This document shows positions 6,577 to 11,240 of a DNA stretch of 64,000 nt, one piece after another. The notes beneath the pieces are model-generated. The model did no database searches. It was given only the letters and a program-made list of their open reading frames with translations, and was not told where the DNA came from. Position 1 is the first letter of the stretch. The number at the start of each line of letters is the position of its first letter. The stretch lies in the NCBI GenBank assembly GCA_021791845.1, contig JAJYVT010000009.1:2176-66175 (forward strand), in the 5' to 3' direction. Both the position numbers and the translations under genes were made by a program. Source of the stretch: Actinomycetes bacterium (GTDB taxonomy: Bacteria; Actinomycetota; Acidimicrobiia; Acidimicrobiales; RAAP-2).

Positions 6577-8307
6577 GTGCCCCGCTCGAACGATCTCGTC
6601 GCCAACGCGCTGAGTGAGCTTGCGGACCTCATCGCCATCACCGGCGGGGACCCGTTCCGGGTGCGGTCCTACGAGAAGGCGGCCCGGTCGGTGGCGGCCT
6701 ATCCCATCGACGTGGACACGCTCGGCGAGTCCGGGCTGGACGCCATACCGGCGGTCGGATCGCACATCGCCGCCAAGATCGCCTCGTTCGTGCACCGCGG
6801 CCACATCGACGAGCTCGACGAGCTGCGGGCACAGGTCCCGGCTGGGCTACGTTCCCTCCTGGACGTGCCCGGTCTCGGTCCTCGGCGGGCCCGACAGATC
6901 TACGACGAGCTGGGCGTGGCGTCGGTGCCGGACCTGCTCTCGGCGCTCGGCCACGAGCGCCTCCGTGGGCTGCGCGGCTGGGGCCCGACCAGCGAGGCCC
7001 GCCTGGCCCAGGCGATCCACGACTTCCAGGGAGCCGGCGGCCGCCTGCAGCTGGGCGTGGCGACGGAGGTCGCCGAGGAGCTCGTGGGCGGGCTCGGGTC
7101 GCAGGGCGCGGTGCAAAGGGTCACCTACGCAGGATCCCTGCGGCGCATGCGAGAGACGATCGGCGACATCGACCTGCTCGCCGCCGCCGACGACGCGGAG
7201 CAGGTGATGGACGCCTTCGCCGGCTTGGCGTCGATCGCAGACCTCCCGGTCCGCGGCCCGACCCGAGGGGCGGCCGTGACGACGACCGGCGTCCACGTCG
7301 ACCTCCGTGTGGTGCCGCCCGAGGTGTGGGGCGCGGCGCTGCTGTACTTCACCGGGTCCAAGGCCCACAACATCCATCTCCGACGCCTGGCCCAGCGCGC
7401 CGGGACGAAGCTGTCGGAGTACGGATTGACGCGCAACGGCCACGTCCTGGCGGCGGCCACCGAGGCGGAGGTGTACGCGCAGCTCGGCATGGCGTACGTG
7501 CCGCCAACCCTTCGAGAGGACCGGGGCGAGATCGAGGCCGCGCTGGACGGCTCCCTCCCGCACCTGGTGGAGCTCGACGCGATCCGGGGAGACCTCCACA
7601 CCCACACCGATCTCACCGACGGCCTGGCGTCGATGGAGGAGATGGCGGCCGCGGCCCGTGCCCGCGGCTACCGGTACATGGCAGTGACCGACCACGCACC
7701 CCTGCTCTCGATGCAGCGGATGACGACCGAGAAGGCGCTCGTCCAGCGGGCCGCCCTCCGTGCCCTCAGCGGCCGCGGCGGGCTCACGCTTTTGCACGGA
7801 TCCGAGCTCAACATTCAACCCGACGGCACGCTCGACTGGGACGACGACTTCCTGTCGCACTTTGACGTCCTGGTGGCCTCGGTGCACTCGGCGTTCCGGC
7901 TCGGACGAGACGCCATGACCGCTCGGATCATCCGGGCGATCGAGCACCCGGCCGTGAACATCATCGGGCACCCGACGGGGCGCAGCCTCGGGAGCCGGCC
8001 ACCGATCGACTTCGACCGTGACGCGGTCTTCCGGGCGGCCGCCCGGGCGGGGACCGCGCTCGAGATCAACTCCTTCCCCGACAGGTTGGACCTCGGCGAC
8101 GAGCTGGCCCGCCGAGCACAGGAGCTGGGTGTCCTCTTCGCCATCTCGAGCGACGCCCACGCCACGCGCCACCTCGACAACATGCGCTACGGCGTGGGGA
8201 CGGCCCAGCGAGGGTGGGTCCGACAGGAGAACGTCGTGAACACCTGGCCACTCGCCCGCCTGCGGCGGTTCCTCGCCAAGGAGCACGTCGCGAGCCGCTC
8301 GGCCTGA
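6577..8307 (+). CDS. Family X DNA polymerase with C-terminal PHP phosphoesterase domain (PolX)
   Basis: N-terminal HhH region (FRVRSYEKAARSV), nucleotidyltransferase motif GSLRRMRETIGDIDLL, PHP motifs DLHTHTDLTDG and ISSDAH. Confidence 0.9.
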   Translation: MPRSNDLVANALSELADLIAITGGDPFRVRSYEKAARSVAAYPIDVDTLGESGLDAIPAVGSHIAAKIASFVHRGHIDELDELRAQVPAGLRSLLDVPGLGPRRARQIYDELGVASVPDLLSALGHERLRGLRGWGPTSEARLAQAIHDFQGAGGRLQLGVATEVAEELVGGLGSQGAVQRVTYAGSLRRMRETIGDIDLLAAADDAEQVMDAFAGLASIADLPVRGPTRGAAVTTTGVHVDLRVVPPEVWGAALLYFTGSKAHNIHLRRLAQRAGTKLSEYGLTRNGHVLAAATEAEVYAQLGMAYVPPTLREDRGEIEAALDGSLPHLVELDAIRGDLHTHTDLTDGLASMEEMAAAARARGYRYMAVTDHAPLLSMQRMTTEKALVQRAALRALSGRGGLTLLHGSELNIQPDGTLDWDDDFLSHFDVLVASVHSAFRLGRDAMTARIIRAIEHPAVNIIGHPTGRSLGSRPPIDFDRDAVFRAAARAGTALEINSFPDRLDLGDELARRAQELGVLFAISSDAHATRHLDNMRYGVGTAQRGWVRQENVVNTWPLARLRRFLAKEHVASRSA

Positions 8308-8363
8308 GGGGGTAGCTGCAGCACTCCGATCGGGGCAAGCTCGCTCGCCCGACGTGCTGGTGG

Positions 8364-10145
8364 CTACGGGGTGCCGCGCCGGGTTGTGTGCCCAGGGGTT
8401 GTGCCAGCGTGGCCGGATGTCGCGCCTTGGTGGCCCGGGGCTGTGCCGGAGAGGCCGGGGGCTGTGCCCGTGAGACCCGGCGCTGTGCCCGTGAGACCCG
8501 GCGCTGTGCCCGAGTGGCCCGGCGCTGTGCCCGAGTGGCCCGGCGCTGTGCCCGTGAGACCCGGCGCTGTGCCCGAGTGGCCCGGCGCTGTGCCCGAGTG
8601 GCCCGGCGCTGTGCCCGTGAGACCCGGCGCTGTGCCCGTGAGGCCCGGCGCTGTGCCCGAGTGGCCGGGGGCTGTGCCCGAGAGGCCGGGGGCTGTGCCC
8701 GAGAGGCCGGGGGCTATGCCCGAGTGGCCCGGCGCTGTGCCCGTGAGGCCCGGCGCTGTGCCCGTGAGGCCGGGGGCTGTGCCCGAGAGGCCGGGGGCTG
8801 TGATCTGCGTCACCACCGGCGACGTGGTCGTGGCCGACACGGGAACCGTCGGCAGCGTGGCAGGCCTGGAACCGGCACCGGTCGAAACGGTCGCTGCACT
8901 CGCCGGAGGAGACAGCCTCGTCGTCCACCCGGTGGCCACGTTGCGCCCGTCGGCCCCCGGCGCCGCGGCGGTTGCGGCAGGCGGCCGCGCAGCCGGCGCG
9001 GCAGCGGGAGCGGGAGCCGACGCCGCGAGCGGGTTCACCATGAGGCTGGCTCCGAGCGTCGCGGTGGCGACACTGGCCAGGGTGGCGGTCGAGACGGCGC
9101 TGCCGCCGGCCCCCACCACCGCTCCGACCTGGGCGGCCGCCCGTGGGACGATGCCGATGAAGGGCAGTTCGGCGATCCAGGCCACCAGCCCGATGGTCCA
9201 GTGCACCCGGCCCAGCGACACGTTGACGAATGCCCGCACCACCTGGGGGTCGAACTGCGAACCGGCGACGCGAACGAGCTCCTCTCGTGCCGCAGTCGCC
9301 GATATCGGGCGCTTGTACGACCGGACCGCGGTCATGACCTCGAAGCTGTCGACCACGGCGACGATCCGTGCCGAAAGGGGGATCTCCTCCCCCTGGAGAC
9401 CGTTCGGGTACCCGGTGCCGTCGAAGAACTCGTGGTGGCACGCGACGGCATCCACGCCCGACCCGATGAAGGGCCGGAGCGGGTGGACGAGCCGGCCGCC
9501 TTCGGCCGGATGCCGGCGGAGCTGCTCCCACTCTGCGGGGGTGAGCGCGCCGGGCTTGTTCAGGATCTCTGCAGGGACGAGCAGCTTACCGATGTCGTGG
9601 AGAAAGGCGCCCCACCGCACCTCGTTGGCCTGCGCCTCGGTGAGCCCGAGCTCGTCGATGACCAGCTCGGCCAGTGCTCGCGTCCGTTCCGAATGGCCGC
9701 GGGTCCGCCGGTCGTGGAAGTTGAGCGCCGACGCGAGCGTGAGCACCTTCTCCGCCAGTGCTTGCGCGTCCAGCGGGTCATGATTGGTGCGGGCCCACTC
9801 CCGGAGTCGCCGCACGCTGGTGCTGCGGAGGGCGACGGCAAATCGCGACGGTGCATGGTCGGGGAACACGAGTGACAGGCGGAGCAGGACGGCGAGCGGG
9901 AGCAGTCGGCGGGCGGCCCACTCGACCACCACGAAGGTGACCACCGATGCCAGCCCAGCCGCGCCAACCCGGCCGACGATGTCGAGCGCGCTGTCGCCGG
10001 CGATGGCCCATCCAACGACCATGCCCACAGCCACAGAGGCCAAGAGCGGTCCCGCGGTCACGGTCGCTCGCAGCAATGCCGCCGCGAGCCCACGGTCCTC
10101 CCACCGGTCGCGCCGGGCCAGACGCGTCCCGAACGTGCTGGTCAT
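8364..10145 (-). CDS. Membrane HD-GYP domain protein (probable cyclic-di-GMP phosphodiesterase) with a C-terminal heptad-repeat tail
   Basis: ATG at 10145 follows GGGAGGTG. HD-GYP motifs HDIGKLLVP and HHEFFDGTGYP. Hydrophobic helices lie before and after the catalytic domain. The C-terminus is about 20 tandem PG(L/H)(S/T)GTA heptads. Confidence 0.85.
   Translation of the reverse strand: MTSTFGTRLARRDRWEDRGLAAALLRATVTAGPLLASVAVGMVVGWAIAGDSALDIVGRVGAAGLASVVTFVVVEWAARRLLPLAVLLRLSLVFPDHAPSRFAVALRSTSVRRLREWARTNHDPLDAQALAEKVLTLASALNFHDRRTRGHSERTRALAELVIDELGLTEAQANEVRWGAFLHDIGKLLVPAEILNKPGALTPAEWEQLRRHPAEGGRLVHPLRPFIGSGVDAVACHHEFFDGTGYPNGLQGEEIPLSARIVAVVDSFEVMTAVRSYKRPISATAAREELVRVAGSQFDPQVVRAFVNVSLGRVHWTIGLVAWIAELPFIGIVPRAAAQVGAVVGAGGSAVSTATLASVATATLGASLMVNPLAASAPAPAAAPAARPPAATAAAPGADGRNVATGWTTRLSPPASAATVSTGAGSRPATLPTVPVSATTTSPVVTQITAPGLSGTAPGLTGTAPGLTGTAPGHSGIAPGLSGTAPGLSGTAPGHSGTAPGLTGTAPGLTGTAPGHSGTAPGHSGTAPGLTGTAPGHSGTAPGHSGTAPGLTGTAPGLTGTAPGLSGTAPGHQGATSGHAGTTPGHTTRRGTP
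8385..8806. repeat. About 20 head-to-tail copies of a 21-bp unit (cccggcgctgtgcccgtgaga-like) inside the 3' end of the HD-GYP gene
   Basis: Direct reading of 8385-8806. Units differ at only a few positions (gtgaga / gagtgg / gagagg variants) and there are no spacers. Confidence 0.95.
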
Positions 10146-10267
10146 GGCACCTCCCATCCCCTGGTAATGCCGATGGCATGCTACATGAAGCAATGACCGA
10201 GCCGCCAGGGCGGGTCGGTCCCCTGGTCGACCCGCCCTCGTGCGTGGTTGCCCGTGCCCCGTCGCAC

Positions 10268-10303
10268 GCGACACCCCGGGACCGGAGGGCCCCGGGGTGT
10301 CGC
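10268..10303 (-). terminator. GC-rich hairpin 19 nt downstream of the secreted-repeat-protein stop (candidate intrinsic terminator or attenuator without a U-tract)
   Basis: cgGACACCCCGGG (10268-10280) pairs with CCCGGGGTGTCcg (10291-10303), loop 10 nt. A second 10-bp stem, GGGCGGGTCG 10208-10217 / CGACCCGCCC 10228-10237, lies between it and the HD-GYP start. Confidence 0.35.
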
Positions 10304-10321
10304 AGCGAGGTGGTCGGCGGG

Positions 10322-10957
10322 TCAGCTACCCGAGCACACCTTCAACCCGGCCGTGCTCACGCCAACGCTCAGCGTCCCGGCGGACGAGGAAAGGTTCAGG
10401 CCGCCAGCGCCGGTCACGGGCGACGCTGTGGCGCCCGGGATGCCCGGCGTGGTCACGCAGCCACCCTTCCCGGGCGTCGGAAGGGCCGGCAGTGTCGGCA
10501 GCGACGGTGGTGTGAGCGACGGTGGTGTGAGCGACGGTGGTGTGAGCGACGGTGGTGTGAGCGACGGTGGTGTGAGCGACGGTGGTGTGAGCGACGGTGG
10601 TGTCAGGGACGGCGGGCTCACGCTCACCGATCCGCCGCCGGAGGCACTCGTCCCGCCAGCCGATCCCGACCCGGTCACACGGCCGCCGGACGGCGACGCT
10701 GTCGCCTTCGCCGAGAGGCGACCACCCCCCGGCAATGTCGACGCGGTCGGCAGACCTGCCGTGGACGGACTTGCCGACTTCAGGCTGGCGAGCGCCGAGT
10801 GCGTCGGGGACGTCGAGGCTCCGCTGTCCAGGATGCCGGCAACGGCTGCCGCACCGCCTGCGGCGATGGCGAGCGCTGCGGCCGCGCCCAAGCGCCCGAG
10901 CTGCCCCCTCCGGCCCCGCGCGTCGCCGCCAGGCACCGGCCGGTCGTGTGTCGTCAT
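10322..10957 (-). CDS. Secreted Ser/Thr/Gly/Ala-rich protein with (PPSLT)x8 repeat
   Basis: ATG at 10957 follows GGAAGGAG. Arg-rich n-region plus hydrophobic core (RGRRGQLGRLGAAAALAIAAGGAAAVAG) resembles a signal peptide. G/C at third positions is good in this frame. The alternative frames give Arg-rich nonsense. Confidence 0.6.
   Translation of the reverse strand: MTTHDRPVPGGDARGRRGQLGRLGAAAALAIAAGGAAAVAGILDSGASTSPTHSALASLKSASPSTAGLPTASTLPGGGRLSAKATASPSGGRVTGSGSAGGTSASGGGSVSVSPPSLTPPSLTPPSLTPPSLTPPSLTPPSLTPPSLTPPSLPTLPALPTPGKGGCVTTPGIPGATASPVTGAGGLNLSSSAGTLSVGVSTAGLKVCSGS
10486..10612. repeat. 15-bp tandem repeat (gcgacggtggtgtga) with about 7 perfect copies plus degenerate ends
   Basis: Read directly; encodes PPSLT on the minus strand. 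Confidence 0.95.
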
Positions 10958-11240
10958 GTTCGCTCCTTCCTCGTGGGAACGGTGTGGCGGGCCACGGCAC
11001 CGATCCTCTGCGTCACCGGACGGCGCGCATCGCCGCATGCCCGGTGGTGGAACGCCTGGCGCGCCGCCACCTTTCGATCGGTCGAGCCGAACGTCGGGGT
11101 GCCGCCCGCTGCTGCACTCGGGGGGTTAGGGTCCCGGCTCGGGGGCATCCCCCATAGCCGGCCACGTCCGATCGGCTCATGCTGTCCGAAGTGCAGGTGC
11201 CGGGGCCAGCCGTCGGCGCCCGCGACCAGAAGGGAGAACC

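Follow-up and report, generated by a model that had tools for sequence, protein, structure and literature searches.

A 21-bp coding minisatellite in the disordered, probably outward-facing tail of a membrane HD-GYP protein from an uncultured Acidimicrobiales bacterium

The 3′ end of an HD-GYP gene from an uncultured Acidimicrobiales bacterium carries a genuine in-frame 21-bp coding minisatellite. Taken as a whole, the array is a coding minisatellite inside a disordered stalk, and one lineage's version of a family-wide, probably outward-facing tail. The explanation we favor, with a probability of roughly 0.6, is that the minisatellite built a disordered outside tail on a receptor-type membrane HD-GYP protein, and that this tail is rebuilt under selection for its bulk properties. 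The outside topology and the slippage mechanism are what we infer here; that the tail acts as a flexible spacer or an envelope-spanning stalk is conjecture.

According to this explanation, the protein would consist of an N-terminal transmembrane (TM) hairpin, a cytoplasmic HD-GYP domain that is catalytically intact by its motifs, one further crossing, and a last stretch of ~220 residues outside, with the array supplying about two-thirds of this intrinsically disordered C-terminal tail. Across the Acidimicrobiia family the outside part would be a low-charge, A/G/P/S/T-rich stalk, either bare or bearing Ig-like, cadherin, lamin-tail or PA14 domains. The target of selection would be the stalk's bulk properties (a length near 200 aa, its composition and its frame), not its sequence, so that lineages could build the stalk anew time and again, by slippage during replication or by unequal recombination between short units with lengths that are multiples of three. 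In the present case the unit PG(L/H)(S/T)GTA would have passed through expansion, divergence into three peptide types, decay at the 3′ edge and, latest, duplication of a 63-bp block.

Results

A genuine HD-GYP gene in a GC-rich genome

The window analyzed here is a 64,000-nucleotide stretch of contig JAJYVT010000009.1, from an uncultured Acidimicrobiales genome of 3.55 Mb (73% GC, 91% complete). The original prediction that the window holds a real HD-GYP gene was borne out: the product matches PF13487 (HD_5; E=9.8e-36, about 1e-35, and 123.5 bits against a cut-off of 27.2) and, as a second Pfam match, PF01966 (HD; E=1.4e-15), and it contains the motifs HDIGK and HHEFFDGTGYP, the latter with the HHE and GTGYP signatures. 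In an alignment of 53 homologues, H144/D145, H151, H183/D184, K187, H212, H237/H238, GxGYP at 243-247 and D266 are invariant, and the metal-ligand residues are in place. The PDB relatives of the catalytic domain are 5z7c, 4mcw and 4r8z, the top match being 5z7c, a cGAMP-specific enzyme; the membrane-bound enzyme of the window probably degrades c-di-GMP. An identical 593-aa product is recorded in an NCBI assembly. The gene was delimited as follows.

8364..10145, minus strand: HD-GYP phosphodiesterase gene, 593 aa from ATG 10145 (P0122; ORF list, translation and Pfam)
Start at GTG 10274, minus strand: longest ORF of the same gene (P0001, 636 aa)
8364-8366, minus strand: stop codon of the gene, with no stop before 8366 (translation)

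The region 8200-11200 yielded neither a sigma-70-type promoter nor an intrinsic terminator. All six reading frames are open across the array region in the ORF list of this 73% GC DNA, and the plus-strand ORFs at 8371-9783 and 8388-9875, which lie antisense to the HD-GYP domain, were rejected as genes. Synteny is not kept, as the same-genus orthologue (G008) has neither PolX downstream nor the PPSLT-repeat gene upstream.

The array is an in-frame minisatellite with largely synonymous unit variation

TRF reported a 21-bp array at 8432-8802 with 17.7 copies, 90% matches, 0% indels and a score of 518. Read in the gene frame, the full array (8376-8795, minus strand) comprises 17 clean and three decayed units in register with the HD-GYP codons, which agrees with the initial description of about 20 in-frame heptads at the C-terminus.

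8439..8795, minus strand: 17 clean 21-bp units, PG[L/H][S/T]G[T/I]A, aa 451-569 of P0122 (TRF and in-frame reading)
8376..8438, minus strand: three decayed units (PGHQGAT, SGHAGTT and PGHTTRR) that close the array on its 3′ side; GTP and the stop codon come next
8481..8606, minus strand: perfect tandem duplication of a 63-bp block (HS-HS-LT twice), a 100-nt exact repeat at offset 63

The units have one length divisible by 3, run head to tail without indels and stay in the codon register, so that the array is a coding minisatellite and the frame is kept, as had been proposed. With a 21-bp unit at the 3′ end of the gene, a change in copy number affects the length of the tail only, and a frameshift-type, phase-variable on/off locus was rejected on the same grounds. 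The array is the top-scoring short-period repeat across the 3.55-Mb genome, in which no other PGxxGTA arrays were found.

The initial description of the units as near-identical proved slightly too strong, since their mean pairwise identity is 88% (minimum 76%) and they fall into nine DNA variants. These nine variants encode only four peptides in the gene frame, whereas the two other frames on that strand give eight each, because four of the seven variable unit positions are third codon positions at which the changes are synonymous in the gene frame. One antisense frame likewise gives four peptides, as expected because its third positions coincide; the antisense ORF lies opposite the HD-GYP domain and was not taken as a gene.

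Long, low-charge tails are the rule in the enzyme family

The tail had been regarded as unusual for c-di-GMP phosphodiesterases. Judged from the sequences compared, however, a long C-terminal tail is the rule in this enzyme family, and only the PGxxGTA sequence is lineage-specific. The suggestion that orthologues might stop upstream of the repeats was not upheld, as none does so and all continue into tails of about 60-270 aa. These tails are rich in A/G/P/S/T, poor in charge and not conserved in sequence, and often contain lineage-specific repeats; 17 of 80 have tandem repeats of their own, with unrelated units. Among 117 homologue tails the composition is A 17, G 14, P 13.5, S 13.6 and T 12%, with no aromatics and with 2.5% Arg compared with 10% in the core. 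The median tail length in the family is 166 aa (range 61-272 aa). In the clade with at least 70% identity, all 12 members have tails of 193-219 aa, the sequences of which are unalignable. The closest relatives share the C-terminal motif VPVVSTVL..VGGVV..LG..GKLG...LLGL, which the window tail lacks, so the array may have replaced a functional element and not preserved one.

These data bear directly on the reading in which the tail is a functionless leftover, that is, a linker that has lost its ectodomain and is kept by the rarity of stop codons at 73% GC, the array itself being neutral slippage. With six frames open at this GC content an open tail alone proves little, and GC3 fails to tell the reading frames apart within the tail (0.82 at the third codon position, 0.85 at the second). 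Such a leftover would also fit the ectodomains of relatives, which come after similar T/P-rich linkers, the spread of tail lengths in the family from 61 to 272 aa, and the failure of tails to align even between proteins that are ~80% identical in the core. However, reading the array in either of the two remaining frames on its strand would give Arg-rich RATRAQR or GPLGHSA units, and the low Arg content of all tails thus indicates that the reading frame is maintained; a frameshift would break the uniform composition of the 117 tails. The narrow range of tail length held in the closest clade and the four synonymous sites among the seven that vary within the array likewise speak against a functionless leftover, which we regard as unlikely.

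The tail most likely lies outside the cell

The remaining parts of the protein were assigned as follows, where KD and dG denote hydropathy and additive insertion values.

10005..10091, minus strand: TM helix 1, aa 19-47 of P0122 (AF2 helix with pLDDT >90; KD peak 1.86)
9912..9989, minus strand: TM helix 2, aa 53 to ~78 (AF2 helix 53-93; KD 2.04)
9225..9767, minus strand: predicted cytoplasmic HD-GYP catalytic domain, aa 127-307 (Pfam; HD, HHE and GYP motifs; conservation; PDB relatives)
9147..9215, minus strand: first post-catalytic hydrophobic segment, aa 311-333, VHWTIGLVAWIAELPFIGIV (KD 1.52, additive dG 5.35)
9036..9095, minus strand: second post-catalytic hydrophobic segment, aa 351-370, VSTATLASVATATLGASLMV (additive dG 3.5, comparable to TM1/TM2)
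8796..9035, minus strand: non-repetitive part of the tail, aa 371-450, A/P/T/S-rich and without predicted structure (AF2, composition)

TM helix 2 runs on as a long helix into the conserved juxtamembrane motif RRLLPLAxLLRLSLVFPDxAPSRF, in which the columns R79, P83, L87, F94, P95, D96, P99 and R101 are invariant (R79 to R101). The sequence LPLAxLLRLSLVFPDxAPSRF also precedes the catalytic domain in two homologues with the same two-TM core (G028 and G039), each of which continues in one ORF into He_PIG/Big_9 plus LTD domains, or into PA14. Among the best 120 relatives of the G039 protein, most have Big_9, cadherin, LTD or FG-GAP domains. Ig-like, cadherin, LTD and PA14 domains are typically extracytoplasmic.

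These receptor-type proteins of Acidimicrobiia, of which we found no published description, are 40-44% identical to the window protein over the core and share with it the N-terminal TM hairpin, the juxtamembrane motif, an intact HD-GYP domain, a post-catalytic hydrophobic region and a C-terminal part beyond the membrane segment. In the receptor-type proteins that part is a Thr/Pro linker followed by an Ig-like, cadherin, LTD or PA14 ectodomain, whereas in the window protein and its ~120 closest relatives it is a disordered tail of 60-270 aa with no folded ectodomain. In the window protein, AF2 gave no secondary structure and a pLDDT <50 for residues 369-593 (its confidence is also <50 for residues 331-397), Pfam gave no match C-terminal to residue 345 of P0001 even with E relaxed to 0.1, and folded adhesin-type ectodomains (Big_9, cadherin, LTD, He_PIG, PA14) are absent.

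Simple hydropathy together with an additive insertion scale does not tell whether one or both of the post-catalytic segments of the window protein cross the membrane. If both did, there would be four TM helices with both ends inside, and the Thr/Ser/Pro-rich heptads could serve in the cytoplasm as, for example, a phospho-acceptor, docking or autoregulatory disordered region. This arrangement draws support from the window's own subfamily, in which 85 of 118 proteins have two moderate segments (KD 1.3-1.7), from the second segment being as favorable as TM1 and TM2 on the crude additive scale, from the far better conservation of both segments than of the tail, and from the abundance of Thr and Ser in the heptads. 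On the other hand, the homologues with the same core bear their Ig-like, cadherin, LTD or PA14 domains at the C-terminal end, and in 65 of 87 ectodomain-bearing relatives there is a single hydrophobic post-catalytic segment, the homologue of the first segment falling under the TM threshold. With its conserved Glu or Asn and its Pro, the first segment clearly fails to resemble a TM helix in those relatives; it is more hydrophobic in the window protein and its closest relatives. Analogous PGxSGxA arrays in other proteins, moreover, always follow a signal peptide or a single TM, as judged by simple hydropathy and FecR context. A cytoplasmic tail with such functions therefore seems improbable.

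The first segment is probably an interfacial or half-membrane helix and not a full crossing, and the second is likely the membrane crossing that places the tail outside; its position matches that of the single hydrophobic segment in the Ig-, LTD- or PA14-bearing relatives, an equivalence taken from the offset to the FDP motif and from side-by-side reading of the sequences. Since the relatives with the same core continue into ectodomains, mostly via a single hydrophobic segment, the tail most likely lies outside the cell. The earlier suggestion of an outside tail is thus supported indirectly by the relatives, whereas the two moderately hydrophobic segments of the protein's own subfamily would also fit two crossings and hence a cytoplasmic tail.

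Copy number differs between assemblies at one duplicated block

Three assemblies, drawn from two archives, contain the array, and its units follow the same order in each. The window has 17 clean units compared with 14 in the two other assemblies (proteins P0002 and P0123), both of which lack exactly 21 residues, or one copy of the 63-bp block, when the alleles are compared as protein sequences. Because this sole copy-number difference falls exactly on the sole perfect 63-bp duplication, an assembly collapse is possible, and the difference could reflect either real slippage or collapse of the 100-nt exact repeat. The predicted variation in copy number is thus seen, but at one perfect block. The rest of the array assembles unambiguously because no other exact internal repeat reaches 40 nt. 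In one strain that differs by 15 substitutions, the 14-unit order is identical to that in another assembly, indicating that the array is stable over that divergence.

The occurrence of 17- and 14-unit alleles in otherwise identical proteins might suggest a contingency-type hypervariable locus, in which frequent gain and loss of heptads adaptively tunes signaling or surface properties. Length differences of this kind are seen elsewhere: a protein with a PGQxG array has six length alleles (6 to 14 heptads) within one 90%-identity cluster, and in a sister species, whose tail array is a different one with 15-bp units, near-identical proteins differ by two units. Against this, the same unit order is kept in the strain with 15 substitutions, the single difference falls on the one block whose assembly is ambiguous, and the divergence of the units to 88% identity does not fit very rapid turnover, so we consider a hypervariable locus quite improbable. 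An artefact, arising either in assembly or from a wrongly called gene end, the true product then stopping short of the repeats, is very improbable and already largely refuted: tandem repeats are poorly handled by short-read metagenome assembly and a 100-nt exact internal repeat is present, but three assemblies agree on the unit order, exact repeats of at least 40 nt are confined to one block, and the reading frame has no earlier stop in a family in which every orthologue has a long tail.

Similar heptads end unrelated envelope proteins

The search for PGxxGTA-like arrays in other proteins that had been proposed did return similar ones. PGxSGxA heptad arrays end many secreted FecR-domain and single-pass anti-sigma-like proteins and show copy-number alleles there; 38 of the best 150 representative matches share the PGxxGxx register, and ~25 have Ser at position 4. 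Ten array-bearing proteins scanned gave no match to Pfam or NCBIfam models. We define this class as C-terminal tails of at least four consecutive heptads in which residues 1, 2 and 5 are Pro, Gly and Gly, and positions 4 and 7 hold a small or hydroxyl residue, a definition that includes the window array with its 17 PG[LH][ST]GTA units. The FecR/anti-sigma-like tails resemble the window tail in their C-terminal heptads, in Pro1, Gly2, Gly5, Ser/Thr4 and a small residue at 7, and in having copy-number alleles. However, their host proteins are unrelated to the window protein, position 4 is almost always Ser compared with Ser/Thr in the window, and most heptads there have Q, N, K or R at position 3 compared with L/H. 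The likeness is probably convergent, not homologous.

It is a tentative, and in our view doubtful, extension that PGxSGxA-type arrays form a widespread, unannotated, length-variable outside module on envelope-signaling proteins (single-pass anti-sigma-like, FecR-domain and receptor-type HD-GYP proteins), the copy number of which tunes signaling. If so, the number of heptads would determine how far a flexible stalk, which might serve as a glycosylation scaffold, extends across the wall or periplasm, and in the window gene slippage would yield heritable variants of a c-di-GMP phosphodiesterase that differ in the length of the outside tail.

Discussion

What is new here is the minisatellite-built tail together with the wider heptad class; the basic annotation of the gene is unchanged, and the array is an ordinary kind of sequence feature. 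Canonical HD-GYP enzymes (the RpfG family; PmGH 4MCW, PA4781 4R8Z and V-cGAP3 5Z7C) match the catalytic domain at E=1e-23 to 1e-33 and share all signature motifs. According to a published HD-GYP census, in which the terms cadherin, Ig-like, lamin and Acidimicrobia do not occur, the HD-GYP domain is typically C-terminal, after N-terminal sensor domains. Unlike these proteins, the window enzyme lacks an N-terminal sensor domain, and behind its HD-GYP domain come a membrane segment and then a long tail. Thus, whereas HD-GYP is usually the output domain behind N-terminal sensors, the variable part here follows the enzyme and is very probably outside, and the window protein would be the minimal form, a bare stalk with nothing folded on top. 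It would illustrate cleanly how minisatellite expansion can rebuild a disordered region outside the cell at constant length and composition, which bears on what selection sees in such tails. The occurrence of similar heptads on the outer ends of unrelated envelope-signaling proteins provides a searchable motif class that is unmodelled in the databases scanned.

Two known systems are related in kind. Borg aaTRs (PMC9879509), like coding VNTRs in general, are in-frame tandem repeats that create disordered regions; as in the window, the aaTRs have a length divisible by 3 and a disordered product in membrane or extracellular host proteins, and in both Borgs and the window family homologous proteins have independently formed repeats of similar composition. 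In contrast to the aaTRs as described there, the window array is chromosomal in a high-GC actinobacterium, its units are ~88% identical and not perfect, and it is stable between two diverged strains. Streptococcal membrane proteins have Ser/Thr-rich extracytoplasmic disordered tails that are O-glycosylated, according to PMC12041528; like the window tail, these are C-terminal, of low complexity and membrane-associated, the window tail being probably outside. Compared with the streptococcal tails, the window tail belongs to another phylum with another envelope and consists of Pro/Gly-containing heptads. No PMT-type O-mannosyltransferase (PF02366) was found in the 91%-complete host genome, so that a role as a Pmt-type O-mannosylation substrate is unsupported; other glycosyltransferases are possible.

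Several resemblances of the heptads to known repeats were rejected. A search of the literature for the pentapeptide strings returned only collagen, silk and unrelated matches. In a phmmer search the tail aligned to RPB1 CTDs (E ~1e-20), a match that arises from period-7 low complexity; Tyr is absent from the unit and Pro occurs at position 1 only, and the unit is thus not an RNA polymerase II CTD-like heptad (YSPTSPS). A collagen-like GXY repeat does not fit either, as within a 7-residue unit the Gly residues lie alternately 3 and 4 residues apart. A His-rich or metal-binding tail was rejected for the family, in which His makes up 1.8% of the 117 tails compared with 3.1% of the cores; the window tail alone is mildly enriched in His (9 of 215 residues).

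A coding minisatellite in the tail of an HD-GYP protein

The HD-GYP gene of the window carries a coding minisatellite within a disordered, probably extracytoplasmic stalk that is common to the whole protein family.

8364-10274, minus strand: HD-GYP gene, longest ORF (636 aa, P0001)
10145, minus strand: start ATG of the product on record (593 aa, P0122)
8439-8795, minus strand: 17 clean units, PG[L/H][S/T]G[T/I]A, in the HD-GYP frame
8376-8438, minus strand: three decayed units (PGHQGAT, SGHAGTT and PGHTTRR), then GTP and the stop

Tandem Repeats Finder placed a 21-bp array at 8432-8802 (17.7 copies, 90% matches, no indels, score 518), which scores highest among the short-period repeats of the 3.55-Mb, 73% GC genome; no PGxxGTA arrays were found elsewhere in that genome. 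The original prediction had described about 20 heptads in the C-terminus of a real HD-GYP protein, and this observation was confirmed, with 17 clean and three decayed units in frame, while its interpretation was partly supported. "Near-identical" proved slightly too strong a term for the units, which fall into nine DNA variants with a mean pairwise identity of 88% and a minimum of 76%. Seven of the 21 unit positions vary, and since four of them fall on synonymous third codon positions in the HD-GYP frame, the nine variants encode only four peptides there; the remaining two same-strand frames would yield eight each. One antisense frame likewise gives four peptides, as expected where third positions coincide. 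The ORF in that frame was rejected as a gene, since it runs antisense to the HD-GYP domain.

The gene itself is a real HD-GYP gene with all signature motifs kept: the protein matches Pfam HD_5 (E=1e-35), and an alignment of 53 sequences shows no variation in the HDIGK, HHE and GTGYP motifs or in the other conserved His and Asp positions. The closest solved structures to the catalytic domain are V-cGAP3 (5z7c), PmGH (4mcw) and PA4781 (4r8z). From these relatives, the domain match and the motifs, the catalytic domain looks active, with c-di-GMP or cGAMP as candidate substrates.

Alleles of the array

The 90%-identity cluster of the window protein has three members, each from a different assembly, which we compared as proteins. 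The NCBI member, which has 17 clean units, is the product of the window gene itself; the first ENA member is the same except that 21 residues (unit block HS-HS-LT) are absent, and the second has 15 substitutions, 14 of them within the N-terminal transmembrane (TM) hairpin, and the same 14 units in the same order. Because the array is present in three assemblies and the 14-unit order recurs in a diverged strain, it is not the assembly artefact that had been considered; the array is real, and diverged strains keep its unit order. What is absent corresponds exactly to one of the two copies in a perfect 63-bp tandem duplication, and it is this duplication that gives the array its sole exact internal repeat of at least 40 nt (100 nt at offset 63). 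Short-read assembly could collapse such a repeat, so that the proposed variation in copy number, seen as 17 versus 14 clean units across assemblies, reflects either a single real event of slippage or unequal exchange or a collapse of the 63-bp block during assembly. Of the 15 amino-acid differences between the two ENA alleles, P0123 and P0002, 14 fall within the TM hairpin (residues 9-77), and the last 381 residues, array included, are free of any; this pattern would fit an allele of mosaic or recombinant origin, or else a contig that is chimeric.

Every homologue has a tail

We examined the 120 best homologues, which are Acidimicrobiales or Acidimicrobiia according to their source-given names. 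The core was well conserved to about residue 370 and none of the 120 stopped before the tail, which argues against a true stop upstream of the repeats. A long tail had been thought unusual for such enzymes; within the family it is the rule, and only the tail sequence is not shared. Tails are 61-272 aa long (median 166) and consist largely of A (17%), G (14%), P (13.5%), S (13.6%) and T (12%), with aromatics nearly absent and Arg at 2.5% versus 10% in the core. They cannot be aligned even between proteins about 80% identical across the core, and 17 of 80 contain tandem repeats of their own with unrelated units (for example TLPPQATSH, NAGGNGVAATS, TGNPHQPGA and PGGPA). The single orthologue found within the genus (G008) carries a 15-bp array of 7.1 copies at 98% identity (L002:1650-1755) encoding PGGPA, and a near-identical database protein, P0014, has two PGGPA units fewer. 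Length is nevertheless kept in the closest clade (at least 70% core identity), where all 12 members have tails of 193-219 aa and the window tail has 215. Frameshifted, the window array would encode Arg-rich RATRAQR or GPLGHSA units, and the uniformly low Arg of all tails indicates that the reading frame and tail composition are maintained in the family. From residue 369 onward, AlphaFold2 run with the family alignment predicted no secondary structure, and pLDDT stayed <50. The closest relatives (P0003-P0011, about 80% core identity) have a common tail-end motif, VPVVSTVL..VGGVV..LG..GKLG...LLGL, which the window protein lacks; its PGxxGTA array starts about where the motif would fall.

Location of the tail

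AlphaFold2 and hydropathy place the TM hairpin at residues 19-47 and 53 to about 78, followed by the cytoplasmic HD-GYP domain and by two hydrophobic stretches, at 311-333 (with a conserved Glu and Pro) and 351-370. The window sequence taken alone fits one or two crossings after HD-GYP and does not decide between them. Proteins from two same-order genomes, G039 and G028, have the hairpin, the juxtamembrane motif LPLAxLxxLSLVFPDxAPSR and HD-GYP as in the window protein. In both, the same ORF runs on past a linker rich in Thr and Pro; in G039 (954 aa) it leads to He_PIG/Big_9 and a lamin-tail domain, in G028 (946 aa) to PA14. Most of the best 120 relatives of the G039 protein carry Big_9, cadherin-like, LTD, He_PIG or FG-GAP domains, which are extracytoplasmic domain types in bacteria. 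A single hydrophobic segment follows the catalytic domain in 65 of 87 ectodomain-bearing relatives, at the place that corresponds to the second segment of the window protein; their equivalent of its first segment is not TM-like. Members of one family normally share their topology, and these relatives therefore favour the proposed position of the window tail outside the cell, to which we assign a probability of about 0.8.

Heptads in other proteins

The last 150 residues were searched with phmmer against 1.84 billion representatives, and the matches were mostly periodic low complexity. Arrays resembling PGxxGTA were nevertheless found: 38 of the best 150 matches have at least four consecutive PGxxGxx heptads, and about 25 follow the consensus PG[QLHNKR]SG[STNDA][ATP]. 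One group of hosts combines a signal peptide and a FecR domain (PF04773) in a short protein. A second group, to which some Acidimicrobiia proteins belong, is single-pass and has a conserved 'LPxPxQ...G..LP' segment behind the TM. In addition, one ECF sigma factor is fused to a membrane-spanning C-terminal part bearing the heptads, and there is one small secreted protein. The array is C-terminal to a signal peptide or TM in every group, and in the ten array-bearing proteins scanned it had no match in Pfam or NCBIfam. Six alleles of a single-pass, anti-sigma-like protein (P0242 cluster, P0279-P0283, 90% identity) have 6, 8, 8, 10, 12 and 14 PGQ[S/G]G[N/T/D][A/S] heptads, in two-unit steps with one substitution otherwise. 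Among 200 genomes of the class, four more have similar arrays (E 1e-8 or better), and the three ORFs inspected encode single-pass proteins of the 'LPxPxQ...G..LP' type. The hosts are not related to one another, so the likeness probably arose by convergence.

The terms cadherin, Ig-like, lamin and Acidimicrobia are absent from a published HD-GYP census, and a literature search on the pentapeptide strings turned up nothing relevant. Borg elements are known to have in-frame repeats by which membrane or extracellular proteins gain disordered regions (PMC9879509), and in streptococci O-glycosylation of Ser/Thr-rich outside tails of membrane proteins has been described (PMC12041528); a PMT-type mannosyltransferase was not found in the window's genome, which is 91% complete. 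New here are the minisatellite-built tail with its kept length and composition, its alleles, and the wider heptad class.

Neighbouring genes and other repeats

The co-directional upstream neighbour (10322-10957, minus strand) encodes a membrane-anchored or secreted S/T/G/A/P-rich protein with (PPSLT)x8, from a 15-bp array of 7.5 copies at 10500-10612 (97% identity), so that two adjacent genes both have young in-frame arrays; this neighbour is absent from the G008 orthologue locus. The convergent neighbour (6577-8307, plus strand), a 576-aa ORF ending 57 nt from the HD-GYP stop, reads in translation as a putative PolX-type protein with polymerase X and PHP domains, and no intrinsic terminator pattern was found between the two genes. 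Repeats of 126-bp period (42-aa protein repeats) predominate in the genome's tandem-repeat list, at more than 20 loci on contigs including C30, C32, C149, C152, C127, C46 and C97, which look like a large paralogous repeat-protein family. The period is divisible by 3 in 323 of the genome's 396 arrays; a perfect 28-bp head-to-tail array of 5.4 copies (C70:50059-50208, 100% matches) is not among these.
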